Notes under the pieces: generated by a model
What the model was told of the DNA's origin: nothing
The model's database searches: none
What the model saw: only the letters and a program-made list of their open reading frames with translations
Virus record (IMG/VR): IMGVR_UViG_3300042567_001420
Origin: a virus
Lineage: Duplodnaviria > Caudoviricetes
Length of the DNA: 64,000 bases
Strand: one strand, 5' to 3'
Position numbers and translations under genes: made by a program
Part shown: positions 1-50,408 of the stretch, one piece after another
How the letters are laid out: each line of letters begins with the position of its first letter
Numbering within the stretch: the first letter of the stretch is position 1

Positions 1-236
1 TCGCGTTCTTTTGCAAATTGTTCTAAATAGTCTTTTAGACCAATATAAAGCTCTTTGGTAAACATAGAAAAAAGGCGAACGCGTCCATCCCACATACGAG
101 ATTTATACAGAGGATGAAACTTCGCTCCTGGAACTTCAAATGAAAAATGGTCATTTAGTTCTTGTGCAATTGAAGGTTCAGTATCAACTTGCAGATACAC
201 TTCATTCTTTTTTCTTACGCTTATTTTGTCAGACAT
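1..236 (-). CDS. uvsW: UvsW DNA helicase, N-terminal part (truncated at window edge)
   Basis: Manual translation MSDKISVRKKNEVYLQVDTEPSIAQELNDHFSFEVPGAKFHPLYKSRMWDGRVRLFS matches the UvsW N-terminus; ATG overlaps the uvsY stop (TAATG). Confidence 0.9.
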   Translation of the reverse strand, partial: MSDKISVRKKNEVYLQVDTEPSIAQELNDHFSFEVPGAKFHPLYKSRMWDGRVRLFSMFTKELYIGLKDYLEQFAKER

Positions 237-676
237 TACATCATACCGTTTGTGAACTTAGACCATTCAATACTATTCTTGATATCCCATGTTCTACTGT
301 TTAAGGATCTTATAATTTGTTCTAATTGATACATAACAGTTTTAAAGTATTCTACTTTGTCTTGTAGTAAAATTAAATCTGCATCAACCTGCAAAAATTC
401 GTCCATCTCATTTTTCAATGGTTTGTTACCTTGCCATTGAGTCCAACCTTCATCTGATAATTCAAGCTGGGTCATTTCTCCCCTGTAATACTTGTATTTC
501 TTTCTACGAAGGTTGAGATATTCAGACTCTGCTTTGCGTAGGTTAAGCCGAGTAGATGTTAAAAAATTCAAATACTTAGAATGTAATAAAGGTGTGCGAG
601 CAGATTCATGTCCAAGATTAGTCTCATTAATCTTACAATCATCTGCCCACATTTCCTGCAGGTCAGATAATTTCAT
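236..676 (-). CDS. uvsY: UvsY recombination mediator protein
   Basis: MKLSDLQEMWADDCKI...PLLHSKYL...LNSRTWDIKNSIEW; directly upstream of uvsW as in T4-like phages. Confidence 0.9.
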   Translation of the reverse strand: MKLSDLQEMWADDCKINETNLGHESARTPLLHSKYLNFLTSTRLNLRKAESEYLNLRRKKYKYYRGEMTQLELSDEGWTQWQGNKPLKNEMDEFLQVDADLILLQDKVEYFKTVMYQLEQIIRSLNSRTWDIKNSIEWSKFTNGMM

Positions 677-7604: not shown

Positions 7605-9152
7605 TTACTGTTGATTATTTATAGCATCTAGAGGTTGTCCGCCAGCGCCCAATGTAGGTGAAGGTTCAGATTCAATCTGTTCTTCCATCTGCCCAATTTC
7701 TTCATCAGTCATTCTTAACACATTTTTCATTATATATTGTTTACTAAAATAAGTCCCAACATATGGTTGCATCTGATTAATAATATCTACGCGGTTACGA
7801 AGATTTTCAGAATTTTTCATTTCCTCAAAATATTGATCTTGTGCAAACTTATATTGTATTTTTTCTTTAATATCATCCCAATCTTGGTCGGTTATAACAC
7901 CTGTTAAGATTAGTTGTGTTTTAAGAACATCATTAAATAATTCACTAAACTTCTTACGCAGTCTGCCAACAAATTTAGCAAACTTTAATTCATCTCTAGT
8001 AATCTCTGTTGCTCTACCAAATGAAATACCTTGTTGAGGTTGCATTCTTGATAAAGGAACATTCAATGCCTGATATAACTTATTCTGAAAATAAACTATG
8101 TCTTCAATTTGACCTAAGTTTTCACCGCCGGGCAAAGTAGTAATTTCAGTACCTCTGCCGCCTTCTCTACGAGGCAACCAAAAGTCTTCCAACATTGACA
8201 TAAATTTACGGTCATCTCTGATTTCGCCGGTAGCAGAATCATAAACAATCTTGTTTCTATAGCGAGCCATAATATCTTTTAAATATTGCTCAGCTTTCAA
8301 TTTAGGTAAATTACCTACATCAATATAAAATATTCTTCGTTCTGGAGCACGAGCAAGTCTATAAATGACTAACGCGTCTTCCATCATTTTAAGTTGGTTA
8401 ACCGGCTTAATAGCCTTATGTAAGTAACTTAAAACTACATTTTGTTCTGAATCATTTAACCCAGAAGGAACATATGTTATAGAATCTACAGCAACTTTTA
8501 GTCCCTGATTTGTACCAGAAACTGAAGTTTGATAATTGGGATTATAGTTAATCCCTTTTTCGCTATAGATAAAATATTCTTCAATTGACTTAATTAAATC
8601 AACACCCGTTTTTTGATCCTTATCCTTTTTAACTTCTCGGACTTTACGAATCTTTCTTGGGTCAATTTTTCTTAATTCTAAGATTCCCTTTTTAGGGGTC
8701 TTAGTATCAATAATTTTTTGATAATATATTCTTCCGTCAATATACCAACTGCGGAATATATCAAAGCCCTTCATATTAAAATCCAACAATCGCACAACAG
8801 TATTAAACTGTTCCGTAATTGCGGTTTTAATGTTGTCAGGTAAATCTAATCCATCAATATTAATCTGTACTGCAGCTTCATCTTCAACCGCTGCAATTGC
8901 TTCAGTTACAATTTCATCAATTGCACTGGAACAATCAGCATACATAGATGCTTCTCTGTATCGAGTAATTAACTCAGATTCAGACTTTGCGGTAGCATCC
9001 ATATTAAGATAGGTGCCAAAATAGCCACCACCTTGTACGGTTGCTGTTCCATCATCAGTAACAGGTGGCACGAAAGATTGATTCCGCGCCACCTTGTTAA
9101 TATCATTTACATCGTCACGACTAATTGTATAGCCAAACAAATTAATTGCCAT
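7605..9152 (-). CDS. gp20: Portal protein gp20
   Basis: LSYLHKAIKPVNQLKMMEDALVIYRLARAPERRIFYIDVGNLPK, EDFWLPRREGGRGTEITTLPGG. Confidence 0.99.
   Translation of the reverse strand: MAINLFGYTISRDDVNDINKVARNQSFVPPVTDDGTATVQGGGYFGTYLNMDATAKSESELITRYREASMYADCSSAIDEIVTEAIAAVEDEAAVQINIDGLDLPDNIKTAITEQFNTVVRLLDFNMKGFDIFRSWYIDGRIYYQKIIDTKTPKKGILELRKIDPRKIRKVREVKKDKDQKTGVDLIKSIEEYFIYSEKGINYNPNYQTSVSGTNQGLKVAVDSITYVPSGLNDSEQNVVLSYLHKAIKPVNQLKMMEDALVIYRLARAPERRIFYIDVGNLPKLKAEQYLKDIMARYRNKIVYDSATGEIRDDRKFMSMLEDFWLPRREGGRGTEITTLPGGENLGQIEDIVYFQNKLYQALNVPLSRMQPQQGISFGRATEITRDELKFAKFVGRLRKKFSELFNDVLKTQLILTGVITDQDWDDIKEKIQYKFAQDQYFEEMKNSENLRNRVDIINQMQPYVGTYFSKQYIMKNVLRMTDEEIGQMEEQIESEPSPTLGAGGQPLDAINNQQ
7616..7623 (-). 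promoter_or_regulatory. Late promoter TATAAATA inside the 3' end of gp20
   Basis: Exact TATAAATA 19 nt upstream of the gp67 start. Confidence 0.65.
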
Positions 9153-9170
9153 TATTTAAATTCCAAAAAA

Positions 9171-9764
9171 TTAAACACTTAATCCAAGCACTGCACCTGC
9201 TATTAGTGTGGAAGCCGCTACACTATCAGCTGCTCTTAGACCATACTCAAAATGCTGGTATTGGAATGAAACTGTAAATGTAGATAATTGATCATTTGCG
9301 CTAAAGTCTAATCCAACAGGAGAAATATCCACTGGAAATGCACCTAGCATTTTATATGATCTTAAAGTTGCACCATTTCTATCCAATTGCATAACATCAA
9401 TGATTGACTGATATGCAGTAGGATTAGTAAAACCAGTTTTTAGTCCCATGTTTTCAATTCCATTCATCCACTCTTCTATACCATTTCTTAGTTTAAAATC
9501 TGTGTCGTTTAAAATTGTGCATTGGAAAGGTGCGAATACTTTATCGCCAGCCAGTTTAACTTCCCTACCTCTATAAAATACCGGAGTGGTACCTATAGTC
9601 TGGCCTGGAAGTTCTGCTACTGTAACTAAGAAACTACTAGATTCTAATAGTTGTCTGTCGTTTTGAACATACGCCGGAAACCCAATTCTAACTTGGAATT
9701 GATTAGGACGAGCACCGCCGCCCTTTAGTTGCGTTTTAAATTGATCTATTCTAAAATTGCTCAT
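9171..9764 (-). CDS. gp19: Tail tube protein gp19
   Basis: LKGGGARPNQF, GREVKLAGD, LNDTDFKLRNGIEEW, GAFPVDISP. Confidence 0.95.
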   Translation of the reverse strand: MSNFRIDQFKTQLKGGGARPNQFQVRIGFPAYVQNDRQLLESSSFLVTVAELPGQTIGTTPVFYRGREVKLAGDKVFAPFQCTILNDTDFKLRNGIEEWMNGIENMGLKTGFTNPTAYQSIIDVMQLDRNGATLRSYKMLGAFPVDISPVGLDFSANDQLSTFTVSFQYQHFEYGLRAADSVAASTLIAGAVLGLSV

Positions 9765-47847: not shown

Positions 47848-48378
47848 TTATTTGTAAAAAATGTGATTGCCAATTTGTGCGATTTGTTGTCGTTTCCATC
47901 CAGGTGAAACGTATGTTGCGTGATAATAAAGTGCTTCAGTTAGACCAGCTAATCGGAATCCCTCAAGTAATACTTTCTTAGCTACCTCATATGATTCTCT
48001 ATATGCGGATTGGTGAATAGGTCTTGTCTTTGTAGAAGTTTCGCAGTACCAACTAAACTGACAAATAACTTTTTCATACACTACGTTCTTTTGATATACA
48101 ACTTTACATATATCGTTTGGAAATCCAGCATTTGCTGCTCTATTCATTGTTACTTGAGCCACTGCGACTTTACCTTCGAATGGTTCACTTCTTGCTTCGT
48201 GGTAAATATTTTTTGCCAAACAATCCAATTGCTGTTCTCTAACTGCAACCGTTGCTTTAGTATCGTTAAAATTTAGTTGTTTTAAATTTTGTAGTTTCGA
48301 TGTTGTTACTTGTGTTAGTATTGATACCAACAATACTGCAGATACTGCTACTAAAAATGTTTGTGTATATGTTTTCAT
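47848..48378 (-). CDS. SleB-like cell wall hydrolase with N-terminal membrane anchor
   Basis: CLAKNIYHEARSEPFEGKVAVAQVTMNR, CQFSW, ALYYHATYV.P.W, IGNHIFY. Confidence 0.92.
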   Translation of the reverse strand: MKTYTQTFLVAVSAVLLVSILTQVTTSKLQNLKQLNFNDTKATVAVREQQLDCLAKNIYHEARSEPFEGKVAVAQVTMNRAANAGFPNDICKVVYQKNVVYEKVICQFSWYCETSTKTRPIHQSAYRESYEVAKKVLLEGFRLAGLTEALYYHATYVSPGWKRQQIAQIGNHIFYK

Positions 48379-48415: not shown

Positions 48416-48688
48416 TTACTTTTTACTAATAGTCTTTATATTATCTTGAGGAATGTTAGAAACAAAGCCATTCAATACATGAGCCTTTGCAATAATATCA
48501 GTTTCTGAGGGGTAGGCTGGAAAGCCTGGGTGATCCGGAGGTGTTTGGCCAGCATGTTTAGCTGTCTCTACCTTAGTAGACCAATCGTTAGATATTACTT
48601 CACGTTTACCGTAGTAATCGTCACCAAGCATATCTTTGGCCATTTTTAAAAGTTCTAATCTAATTTCGAACGGTGTCATATTACTCAT
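48416..48688 (-). CDS. Hypothetical protein downstream of tmRNA
   Basis: SD AAGGAG; MTPFEIRLELLKMAKDML...YPSETDIIAKA..LNGFVS. Confidence 0.75.
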   Translation of the reverse strand: MSNMTPFEIRLELLKMAKDMLGDDYYGKREVISNDWSTKVETAKHAGQTPPDHPGFPAYPSETDIIAKAHVLNGFVSNIPQDNIKTISKK

Positions 48689-48773
48689 TTTAATCTCCTT
48701 GTGTGTATGAGTGTTTGTAAAATGGTTAGTTATTCTGTTACGAGGAAACTAACCGAAACCCTAGCTACCTTAT

Positions 48774-48806
48774 TTAGGCGGCAATGCGAAACTGTGAGTC
48801 GTTTGC
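48774..48806 (-). other. tmRNA proteolysis-tag reading frame ANDSQFRIAA*
   Basis: GTAAAC-GCA AAC GAC TCA CAG TTT CGC ATT GCC GCC TAA. Confidence 0.9.
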
Positions 48807-48863
48807 GTTTACTTTGTTTTAGTTTTAACATCTACTCTGATGTGCTGTCCACTCTGGTACTCT

Positions 48864-49061
48864 TTACCCTGTCGAATCTATTTCAGGCCCATCATAAAGA
48901 CTTTTCCAACGATTGTGTGCTTCGAAATAACTAATCCAAACACACCCTTCGCATCCTTTACCGCAACAAGAATTTGGCTTTTGCGGTTCGGGCGGTAAAT
49001 CTTTATGGTGGACCTGGCGGGATTCGCACCCGCGTCCAGAATCTGTTTCTCTTTGCTTCAT
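48864..49061 (-). CDS. 65-aa Oxidored-like cysteine-motif protein overlapping the tmRNA precursor
   Basis: PPEPQKPNSCCGKGCEGCVWISY.EA..RW motif falls exactly in the tmRNA intervening segment. Confidence 0.6.
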   Translation of the reverse strand: MKQRETDSGRGCESRQVHHKDLPPEPQKPNSCCGKGCEGCVWISYFEAHNRWKSLYDGPEIDSTG

Positions 49062-49075
49062 ACAGCAATAACTCT

Positions 49076-49104
49076 ATTATAACGCCTTTTGTTTAAGAAG
49101 TCAA
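49076..49104 (-). promoter_or_regulatory. sigma70-type promoter for tmRNA
   Basis: TTGACT-17 nt-TATAAT; predicted start near 49069. Confidence 0.85.
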
Positions 49105-49767
49105 AAGTTGTTTGTCCTTTTCGTATAAATCTCTATACTCTAATAATTTGGTTACCCAATTATCTCGTTTTTCGACAAATACTTGCGGATCATCGTTTTC
49201 AACTGCCATAATAATAACTAATTTACTTACAGGTACCCCTGTTCGTTCTTCATACATAACTGCATATGCAGCACATTGCATAAAGTAATTATGAATGTGA
49301 TCTTTATCTTTTCGTCTACTAGACGTTTTATAATCTATAATTGCTAAGCGACCTTCATATTCGGCAACACAATCTACAGTCCCCGCCAATCTTAAATGAT
49401 CGGAATATAATCTTTGTTCTTGAACATGAACATTGTTAATTTTGTGTAAATATGGAATAATACTTTCAAACAATTCTCTTTGAAATACTGGAATTGTATC
49501 TAGCACATTTACATTATTAAGATAATTCTCACAATGTAAGTGCATTTTAGTGCCACGTCTTGCAGCTGCACTTGCAATTTTATTTGCTTGTTCTTCACCT
49601 ACTCTTTTACGCCATTCCATCAGACCTTGTTTACCATGTGCTGATAAAACAGTGGTTACCGAAGGATATTTTTTACCATTCGGTGTTGCGTAAAATCTTA
49701 CTCCATCTTCTCGAGTAACTTGTTCCAGTTTCTCAAATTCTTTCACCTTAACATGATTATAAATCAT
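49093..49767 (-). CDS. PD-(D/E)XK exonuclease (MGME1/Cas4-like superfamily)
   Basis: YPSVTTVLS, RGTKMH, LAGTVDCVAEYEGRLAIIDYKTS, YFMQCAAYA. Confidence 0.9.
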   Translation of the reverse strand: MIYNHVKVKEFEKLEQVTREDGVRFYATPNGKKYPSVTTVLSAHGKQGLMEWRKRVGEEQANKIASAAARRGTKMHLHCENYLNNVNVLDTIPVFQRELFESIIPYLHKINNVHVQEQRLYSDHLRLAGTVDCVAEYEGRLAIIDYKTSSRRKDKDHIHNYFMQCAAYAVMYEERTGVPVSKLVIIMAVENDDPQVFVEKRDNWVTKLLEYRDLYEKDKQLLTS

Positions 49768-49769
49768 TC

Positions 49770-50408
49770 TTATTCCTGTAATATTTCCACTGCGTGATTG
49801 TAGTGTTTAAGTCTATCTTCAAGACCAATAAATCCACCATTGATTTTCTTTGTCATCATTTTAATATCTTGCGCATCAGCAAGCACATTTAAATTATTAG
49901 CATTCCAGAACCAGCATGCAGAATTTAACGCATAGTAGGGTTGAACTAGAATATCAGGTTGTTCTAATAAAGTATGATCGTCAAAAAATGCTTCAGAACA
50001 TTTTGTGTAATTATGTTTACCTGTTAATTGAATTAAGCCTCTGCCTCTAAATTTCCAACCCTCACCACTTGCTTCGTCTCCATTACCCATTCTATTTGCG
50101 TACACTTTATTAGCAATCTTTTCAGGTTGTCTTGCGTATTGGGTTGCGATTTGAGGATTAGGAAAATACTTACCAAATATCTTTTGCAGGCCATCTGCAC
50201 TATAGTTAAGATTTTCTTGCATAATCGCAAATCCGCCAGATTCATGAGCGCATTGTGCAATAAATGCAGAGACTCGAGCGATATCGTTGATACCATATTG
50301 CGGTAAAGTTTCTACCATTGAGTCATACCACTCTTGGTGGTTTTTAACTCGAGGTAATAAATGCTGTACTTTGTCTAATGTGAAATCGAAATCAAATCCA
50401 TCTGCCAT
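49770..50408 (-). CDS. GH19 family endolysin
   Basis: FIAQCAHESGGF...ENLNYS, FRGRGLIQLTGKHNY, SACWFW, TKKINGG..GL.DR. Confidence 0.93.
   Translation of the reverse strand: MADGFDFDFTLDKVQHLLPRVKNHQEWYDSMVETLPQYGINDIARVSAFIAQCAHESGGFAIMQENLNYSADGLQKIFGKYFPNPQIATQYARQPEKIANKVYANRMGNGDEASGEGWKFRGRGLIQLTGKHNYTKCSEAFFDDHTLLEQPDILVQPYYALNSACWFWNANNLNVLADAQDIKMMTKKINGGFIGLEDRLKHYNHAVEILQE

Follow-up and report, generated by a model that had tools for sequence, protein, structure and literature searches.

The locus analysed here lies on the minus strand of a 64,000-nt stretch of viral DNA (hereafter the window), and it raises the question of whether a single short stretch can encode a stable RNA and a protein at the same time, and, if so, how the two are related and where they come from. 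An earlier note, made from the letters of the sequence, had described a phage-encoded circularly permuted (two-piece) tmRNA with its own promoter.

In regard to the RNA, the different approaches agree. ARAGORN calls a permuted tmRNA at 48718-49118 on the minus strand, and two Rfam models match the same place over their full length, both above their gathering scores and well clear of anything expected by chance: RF04321 (tmRNA_permuted; model positions 1-213, 108.3 bits against 47) and RF01850 (beta_tmRNA; 100.3 bits against 84). In the clan comparison, RF01850 is the best member and out-competes the alpha and cyano tmRNA models at the locus. The description of a permuted tmRNA is thus upheld by ARAGORN and both covariance models; ARAGORN did not misread the locus, as one-piece tmRNA scanners and tRNA finders had been expected to do. 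The 3′ half of the gene precedes the 5′ half, and all elements could be placed in the minus-strand order proposed earlier, namely promoter, T-arm with acceptor strand and CCA, intervening segment, acceptor 5′ strand, tag and terminal hairpin. The parts of the gene are as follows:

49006..49067, minus strand: acceptor piece of the two-piece tmRNA, about 62 nt, placed by Rfam alignments, sequence and covariation
49067-49062, minus strand: closing-helix strand UGCUGU, in the acceptor piece
49043-49037, minus strand: P2a strand GAUUCUG, in the acceptor piece
49033-49017, minus strand: T-arm, in the acceptor piece
49016-49010, minus strand: acceptor 3′ strand CAGGUCC, in the acceptor piece
49009-49006, minus strand: discriminator A and CCA (ACCA), 3′ end of the acceptor piece
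48891..49005, minus strand: intervening segment (spacer), 115 nt from the CCA end to G1 of the coding piece, boundaries from the acceptor stem
48724..48890, minus strand: coding piece, about 165 nt, including the D-loop analogue
48890-48884, minus strand: acceptor 5′ strand GGGCCUG, pairing over 7 bp with CAGGUCC and forming G3:U70
48871-48865, minus strand: P2a partner CAGGGUA, in the coding piece
48848-48843, minus strand: closing-helix partner ACAGCA, in the coding piece
48842-48829, minus strand: PK1-position hairpin CAUC/GAUG, in the coding piece
48774..48806, minus strand: tag frame called by ARAGORN, with resume codon GCA (48806), tag ANDSQFRIAA and stop TAA (48776-48774)
48782-48764, minus strand: stop-codon hairpin, in the coding piece
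48754-48724, minus strand: 3′ (terminal) hairpin, in the coding piece

The tRNA-Ala-like acceptor is complete: the 7-bp stem with G3:U70, the discriminator A and the CCA can be read directly from the sequence, as had been claimed. The T-loop, UGCGAAU, carries a G at the position of the usual U55, the norm in the T-loops of tRNAs and of most tmRNAs, and this G is conserved in the sub-lineage. In the alignment to RF01850, the first of the two 3′ hairpins of the model is present (48754-48724) and the second is deleted. No strong terminator was found 3′ of the tmRNA.

The proposed folding is supported by related genes. Relatives were collected from IMG/VR by an exact 36-nt pattern spanning T-arm and acceptor, which retrieved at least 119 contigs, nearly all of them called permuted tmRNAs, and the covariation of the helices was scored over 77 unique related phage genes. 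In the closing helix, five of the six positions occur with 2-5 standard pair types, and between 61 and 77 of the 77 sequences are paired; compensatory versions include GCUGU/ACAGC, GUUGU/GCAAC, GACUGU/ACAGUC and GAUCGU/ACGAUC. In P2a, two positions vary, with 6 and 4 pair types, and are paired in 74/77 and 77/77 sequences. At the PK1 position, a hairpin is retained with differing sequences, and six fully paired, compensating versions of the 5-bp T-stem occur among further relatives. Two pairings between the pieces had been put forward in the earlier note, and they fared differently: UGCUGU/ACAGCA covaries and stands, while CCAGAGU/AUUCUGG has to be replaced, as compensatory changes across the 77 relatives pair xxUUCUG with CAGGGxx (48871-48865), a helix whose outermost pair is a G-A mismatch in the window. 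Near-identical relatives encode the tag ANDSQFALAA, and the FRIAA ending of the window differs from theirs by a +1/-1 indel pair, to which the stop-codon hairpin of the window has been re-paired. Judged from this comparison, the re-pairing suggests that the tag template is maintained and works.

The gene is preceded and followed by these elements:

49076..49104, minus strand: sigma-70-type (phage early-type) promoter, TTGACT 49104-49099, 17-nt spacer, TATAAT 49081-49076
49093..49767, minus strand: PD-(D/E)XK exonuclease gene upstream of the tmRNA, with the -35 box in its last codons, a neighbour also found in Melnitz
48416..48688, minus strand: conserved 90-codon gene directly downstream of the tmRNA, with its own AAGGAG ribosome-binding site

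The promoter lies where a sigma70 promoter had been proposed, agrees with the consensus at 11 of 12 positions and outranks every other site within the 3 kb between 47500 and 50500; from its spacing, transcription is predicted to start at about 49069. The window contains six copies of the arrangement TTGAC-N18-TATAAT, where 0.16 would be expected. Five of the six belong to the minus strand of the early-gene region, at 45 to 60 kb, and four of these five share the spacer end AAAAG(A/G)(T/C)GT. Because of this recurrence, on one strand and in the early-gene region, the tmRNA appears to be transcribed from one of the early-type promoters of the phage itself. The downstream 90-codon gene may be co-transcribed with the tmRNA, and the 90-residue gene also follows the tmRNA in four syntenic contigs (L254, L255, L301 and L302).

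The phage itself belongs to a known group. PHROGs annotation of the window reveals T4-like genes for major head, scaffold, portal, sheath, terminase, gp32, PhoH, an ATP-dependent DNA ligase and the PD-(D/E)XK exonuclease, and in the major head protein the window shares 66% identity with Methylophilales phage Melnitz and 62-64% with the Pelagibacter phages Mosig and HTVC008M. DNA of the window was found in 20 public runs, of which 14 DNA runs, from freshwater and lake water metagenomes filed from 2016 to 2024, cover most of it, and six RNA libraries cover about one fifth. Contigs assembled from four of the RNA libraries are mostly 90-99% matches from relatives with other spacers, and they show neither ends, strand nor joints. 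A two-piece tmRNA has been described in Melnitz (Buchholz et al. 2022; PMC9004378), in a study that counted 53 two-piece tmRNA forms in phage genomes; of its 47 Melnitz-like contigs, 17 had a permuted tmRNA. We confirmed the permuted tmRNA in Melnitz, Mosig and HTVC008M. The tmRNA of the window is, in itself, an additional freshwater member of this published class, phage two-piece tmRNAs having been known since 2022 (PMC9004378).

What lifts the locus above the ordinary, and in our opinion matters more than the tmRNA itself, is a frame for a small, conserved protein rich in cysteine that is threaded through it and that the earlier note had not linked to the tmRNA:

48864..49061, minus strand: 65-codon open frame, ATG at 49061 just after the closing-helix strand, TAA at 48866-48864

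The frame passes through the P2a strand, the T-arm, the acceptor strand, the CCA and the whole spacer, and it stops in the region of the D-loop and P2a partner in the coding piece. Its residues 22-54, which correspond almost exactly to the spacer, match the Pfam family PF09791 (Oxidored-like) with an E-value of 9.4e-11 and 41.7 bits, against a cut-off of 24, and the product also matches the PDB chain 7zm7_o ("Oxidoreductase-like domain-containing protein") with an E-value of 1e-6. The residues of the motif CCxxGCxxCVW (C32, C33, G36, C37, C40, V41 and W42) are invariant in the alignment with stand-alone bacterial proteins. The Oxidored-like (OXLD1) domain extends from bacteria to human mitochondria and, to our knowledge, has no known function. 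An AlphaFold2 model of the 65-residue product, built from a 10-row alignment, has a mean pLDDT of 55 and a single helix at residues 40-56.

As no ATG, GTG or TTG with a ribosome-binding site was found inside the spacer, translation would have to start at the upstream ATG at 49061. This codon has no Shine-Dalgarno sequence, and with about 8 nt between it and the predicted 5′ end of the transcript, the message would be near-leaderless. The same ATG is present in many relatives that do not carry the Oxidored-like domain, and it may be a structural element co-opted as a start. In two contigs, L300 and L310, it is replaced by ACG, and the frame there has a conserved upstream extension of 20 codons with its own ATG, an arrangement of the ATG-less lineage that is consistent with real translation.

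The variation among relatives indicates what is selected in the different parts of the frame. Among 10 variants of the frame, pN/pS ranges between 0.02 and 0.5; for instance, L020 and L050 differ by 12 synonymous changes and one non-synonymous change, and the window and L031 by five and one, respectively. In the spacer part, variable columns at the first, second and third codon positions number 14, 11 and 30 among 23 spacer variants. In the 17 codons of the acceptor piece the corresponding numbers are 11, 9 and 9, and the changes there are compensatory changes in stems. Since the third-position excess is confined to the spacer part, selection switches from RNA to protein at the CCA. As judged from these substitutions, the spacer-encoded part of the 65-codon frame shows protein-level purifying selection. 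Furthermore, the frame is open from an upstream ATG in 36 of 36 unique variants, including the lineage in which the ATG at the place of 49061 has been replaced.

In phages, the domain was found together with the permuted tmRNA. A search of 5.8 billion proteins gave six gene-called homologues with 62-95% identity, and in all fetched contigs encoding them the frame lies inside a permuted tmRNA (96-121 bits on RF04321). A degenerate DNA pattern of the motif retrieved 44 IMG/VR contigs, with the domain in the spacer of a permuted tmRNA in 43 of them; in the remaining one (L336) it lies just upstream of a permuted tmRNA (115 bits), and the frame reads into the acceptor piece. Bacterial genomes were also searched for such an association. 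Among 151 genomes of one betaproteobacterial order, which we read as the Burkholderiales of GTDB, 35 have a PF09791 match and four have a strong permuted tmRNA, and in none of the 151 do the gene and the tmRNA occur at the same place. ARAGORN and motif checks at ten bacterial Oxidored-like loci were likewise negative. A broad T-arm pattern matched one-piece tmRNAs of many phyla in bacterial genomes.

Spacers of the same tmRNA family hold other genes as well. Half of the unique spacers of at least 80 nt (28 of 56) contain an ATG frame that spans 60% or more of the spacer, compared with 4 on the antisense strand; shuffled sequences gave 3.6 on average and 10 at most. These other frames usually have an AAGGAG-type site and an ATG right after the CCA, and many end 1 nt short of G1. 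One of them encodes a thioredoxin (PF00085, E 4e-21), and several others encode membrane peptides of 23-24 residues. The tmRNA spacers of Xanthomonas phages look structured and non-coding. The Oxidored-like frame occupies the same slot as the other spacer genes, but differs from them in having no start of its own and in overlapping the mature tmRNA on both sides, and the reading through the tRNA-like part seems to be particular to it.

Considering all of the above, the best joint explanation, which we hold to be quite likely, is that the phage has a functional, circularly permuted ssrA gene of betaproteobacterial structural type, expressed from an early promoter, with a precursor that also carries a selected protein frame. 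The mechanism assumed for the window is the experimentally established one of the Caulobacter two-piece tmRNA, where tRNA-processing enzymes cleave one precursor and the two resulting RNAs, base-paired with each other, serve in trans-translation (Keiler, Shapiro and Williams 2000, cited in PMC9004378 and PMC11915505). By analogy with Caulobacter, host RNase P would cut 5′ of G48890, and 3′ trimming would leave the encoded CCA at 49006. If processing proceeds as in the known two-piece tmRNAs, the 115-nt intervening segment would be removed, and the acceptor and coding pieces would be held together by the acceptor stem, P2a and the closing helix. The host AlaRS could then charge this RNA by way of G3:U70 and the discriminator A, and the charged RNA, together with host SmpB, would rescue stalled ribosomes and add the tag ANDSQFRIAA. 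In regard to the frame, its layout suggests that, on the unprocessed precursor, ribosomes would initiate at the ATG at 49061 and pass through the tRNA-like region. As the RNase P site comes before the stop codon, a normally terminated protein could come from the unprocessed precursor only, and each transcript would be either translated or matured; a message cut by RNase P would be left with no stop codon. It is conceivable that this dual use of the precursor goes further, with the Oxidored-like protein functionally tied to the tmRNA, maturation generating a non-stop mRNA, and the rescue system thereby setting the yield of the protein. The functional tie is suggested by the 44 of 44 motif-bearing viral contigs in which the domain lies inside or abutting a permuted tmRNA gene, and we nevertheless regard the full scheme as unlikely.

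Both halves of the preferred explanation can be challenged. The RNA could mainly be a decoy or modulator, which might for example titrate SmpB or AlaRS of the host or compete with the host tmRNA, instead of a working rescue and tagging RNA. The tmRNA-like molecule of mycobacteriophage DS6A, which consists of the TLD only, has been discussed as a likely inhibitor (PMC4131195), and in the window the unusual G at position 55 of the T-loop and a tag that departs from the ALAA ending of the family consensus would fit such a role. However, the tag frame, the resume codon, the C-terminal AA and the stop-codon hairpin are kept throughout the family, the last being re-paired after the indel pair of the window, and this maintenance of elements that a decoy does not need makes a decoy very improbable. 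In the same way, the 65-codon frame could be untranslated, with its conservation reflecting a constraint at the RNA level on a structured spacer or a captured gene fragment in decay. The missing Shine-Dalgarno sequence and the lack of a start codon inside the spacer are what such a frame would look like; the spacers of the Xanthomonas phages offer a precedent that looks structured and non-coding, and the structure model of the product is of low confidence (pLDDT 55). On the other hand, the PF09791 match exceeds its cut-off, the third-position excess and the low pN/pS are found in the spacer part only, the frame stays open from the upstream start in all 36 variants, also where the ATG has been replaced, and other spacers of the same family contain clear genes with ribosome-binding sites, such as the thioredoxin. 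We therefore give an untranslated frame hardly more than an outside chance.

A further question is whether the tmRNA was captured passively and recently from a betaproteobacterial host, in which case it would identify that host. A two-piece tmRNA was reportedly described from Betaproteobacteria by Sharkady and Williams in 2004 (cited in PMC9004378). RF01850 being the best clan member is in line with such a capture, as are the bacterial beta-type genes, which have the same promoter layout, the sequences UUCUGGAC and UUCGACAGGG, and similar tags (ANDEHFAIAA, ANDERFALAA and ANDENFALAA in the betaproteobacterial order); moreover, the nearest cultured relative of the phage infects a methylophilaceous bacterium, and the phage DNA comes from lake metagenomes. 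Against it, none of 185,579 bacterial and archaeal species genomes contains the exact 36-nt T-arm/acceptor string, which is present in the at least 119 viral contigs, some of them phage contigs of more than 300 kb. The bacterial beta-type genes reach 156-166 bits on RF04321, compared with 108 in the window. We also found unannotated beta-type permuted tmRNAs in the Xanthomonas phages JGB6 and Rb1, and Melnitz carries an alpha-type tmRNA although its host has another type (PMC9004378). A recent capture is consequently doubtful. Because the string was found in viral contigs only, the same type occurs in Xanthomonas phages, and the types of Melnitz and its host do not agree, the tmRNA type seems to travel among phages, and the beta-type tmRNA, by its distribution in the searched sequences, appears to circulate among them. 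The hint about the host that the earlier note had drawn from the tag is thus sound in so far as the beta subtype fits best and bacterial tags are similar, and it remains a weak pointer in view of the string found in viral contigs only and of the Xanthomonas phages.

With the phage-borne, betaproteobacterial-type tmRNA and its selected frame as the preferred reading, several implications can be drawn. Neither the type of a tmRNA nor its tag should be used without caution as a predictor of a phage host. The locus is a clear example from nature of DNA that is selected for RNA structure up to the CCA and for protein from the next base on, and the threaded frame implies that the precursor of a stable RNA doubles as a messenger. 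The Oxidored-like domain, which in the 44 motif-bearing phage contigs is always linked to a ribosome-rescue RNA, gains in this frame a testable handle. Annotation pipelines will report one of the two, the RNA or the small protein, but not both.

Compared with the described tmRNAs of its own phage group, the window shows a mixture of shared and distinct features. Melnitz, Mosig and HTVC008M have the permuted form of the gene in common with it, and in Melnitz, as in the window, the tmRNA lies downstream of an early promoter, after the genes for PhoH and the PD-(D/E)XK nuclease and before the gp33 and gp59 genes; one syntenic contig (L254) combines the gene order of Melnitz with a tmRNA of the window's type. 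In contrast, the tmRNAs of these three phages are alpha-type (RF01849) and that of the window is beta-type, and the window differs from them in coming from fresh water and in the protein frame through its tmRNA spacer. A glutamine riboswitch such as the one at the 3′ end of the Melnitz tmRNA was considered for the window and rejected, as no Rfam match to it was obtained at the locus even at E-values up to 10.

The Caulobacter tmRNA, from which the processing is borrowed, belongs to the alpha lineage and is a cellular gene with a non-coding spacer, unlike that of the window. The bacterial beta-type genes share with the window a promoter abutting the acceptor piece, the sequences UUCUGGAC and UUCGACAGGG and a tag of the form AND..F..AA. 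However, four bacterial examples have spacers of only 10-55 nt without frames, compared with 115 nt and a frame in the window; the bacterial genes also possess a second, GC-rich 3′ hairpin that the window lacks, and their RF04321 scores exceed that of the window by about 50 bits.

In regard to protein genes within the precursors of stable RNAs, the tmRNA database paper of 2025 draws attention to two tmRNA intervening sequences, for a tRNA gene and a repeat element, and places protein genes in group I introns only (PMC11915505). Protein genes in tmRNA intervening sequences were not found in the literature that we searched, which is no proof of their absence. S23p frames are located in the intervening sequences of the 23S rRNA of Leptospira and Coxiella. 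Group I introns in the T-loops of tmRNAs harbour LAGLIDADG genes (PMC11915505). Like the frame in the window, both are protein genes placed in an excised segment of a stable RNA precursor. They are, however, self-contained within this segment, whereas the frame of the window starts in the acceptor piece of the tmRNA and ends in its coding piece.

The window tmRNA, a permuted tmRNA at positions 48718-49118 on the minus strand, lies in a region flanked by two different cell-wall hydrolase genes, and is followed by a small gene without a known family:
49770-50408, minus strand, cell-wall hydrolase gene
47848-48378, minus strand, cell-wall hydrolase gene
48416-48688, minus strand, 90-codon gene

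One of the hydrolases resembles the GH19 and PHROG 'endolysin' families, while the other belongs to Hydrolase_2 (PF07486), and both genes are kept in the syntenic contigs. The 90-codon gene invariably comes after the tmRNA in the syntenic contigs L254, L255, L301 and L302, and a strong AAGGAG site precedes its ATG by 7 nt. In regard to the tag, the window encodes ANDSQFRIAA (48774-48806), whereas contigs that are near-identical elsewhere encode ANDSQFALAA. The two versions are set apart by an insertion (+1) and a deletion (-1) 8-9 nt from each other, and the window's hairpin around the stop codon has a correspondingly altered downstream arm. Five promoters of the form TTGAC-N18-TATAAT were found on the minus strand between 45135 and 59713 of the window. 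Because TATAAT is directly preceded by AAAAGATGT in three of them and by AAAAGGCGT in one, the sequences suggest a class of early promoters that is specific to the phage and in which the end of the spacer is conserved.

The Oxidored-like frame, part of which lies in the window's spacer between CCA and G1, and a thioredoxin gene were found at related tmRNA loci in two other IMG/VR contigs:
IMGVR_UViG_3300008262_005621 (L060), 210-464, minus strand, thioredoxin of 84 residues with WCGPC (PF00085, E 4e-21)
IMGVR_UViG_3300020182_002139 (L336), 8966-9414, Oxidored-like gene and tmRNA

The permuted tmRNA that hosts the thioredoxin gene belongs to the window tmRNA's family and has a spacer of 268 nt; within this spacer the gene has its own AAGGAA site immediately 3′ of CCA and a stop codon 1 nt ahead of the coding piece G1. 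In L336, the Oxidored-like gene is placed upstream of the tmRNA and has its own ATG; its final 20-odd codons are the tmRNA acceptor piece, and its stop lies just past CCA. The spacer there holds a further small frame with a ribosome-binding site, and an array of eight tRNA genes is present at the same locus. An Oxidored-like frame also occurs in the spacer of a tmRNA with a divergent T-arm in an ENA contig of 47.6% G+C (ERZ27247984, L257), where TctC and DctP transporter genes adjoin; this tmRNA may reside on a bacterial chromosome instead of in a phage.

Unannotated permuted tmRNAs are also present in two Xanthomonas phages, both of them cultured:
JGB6, OQ436456.1, ~52.6-53.0 kb, permuted tmRNA (RF04321, 114 bits)
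Rb1, PQ569993.1, ~16.3-16.6 kb, permuted tmRNA (RF04321, 103 bits)

Their tags are VTANDSYFEVALAA and ANDDNFRPALRLAA, respectively. In JGB6, an opposite-strand CDS annotated as 'hypothetical protein' spans the locus, and the tmRNA also matches the beta_tmRNA model RF01850 (94.7 bits). Xanthomonas is a gammaproteobacterium, and its own tmRNA is expected to be one-piece.
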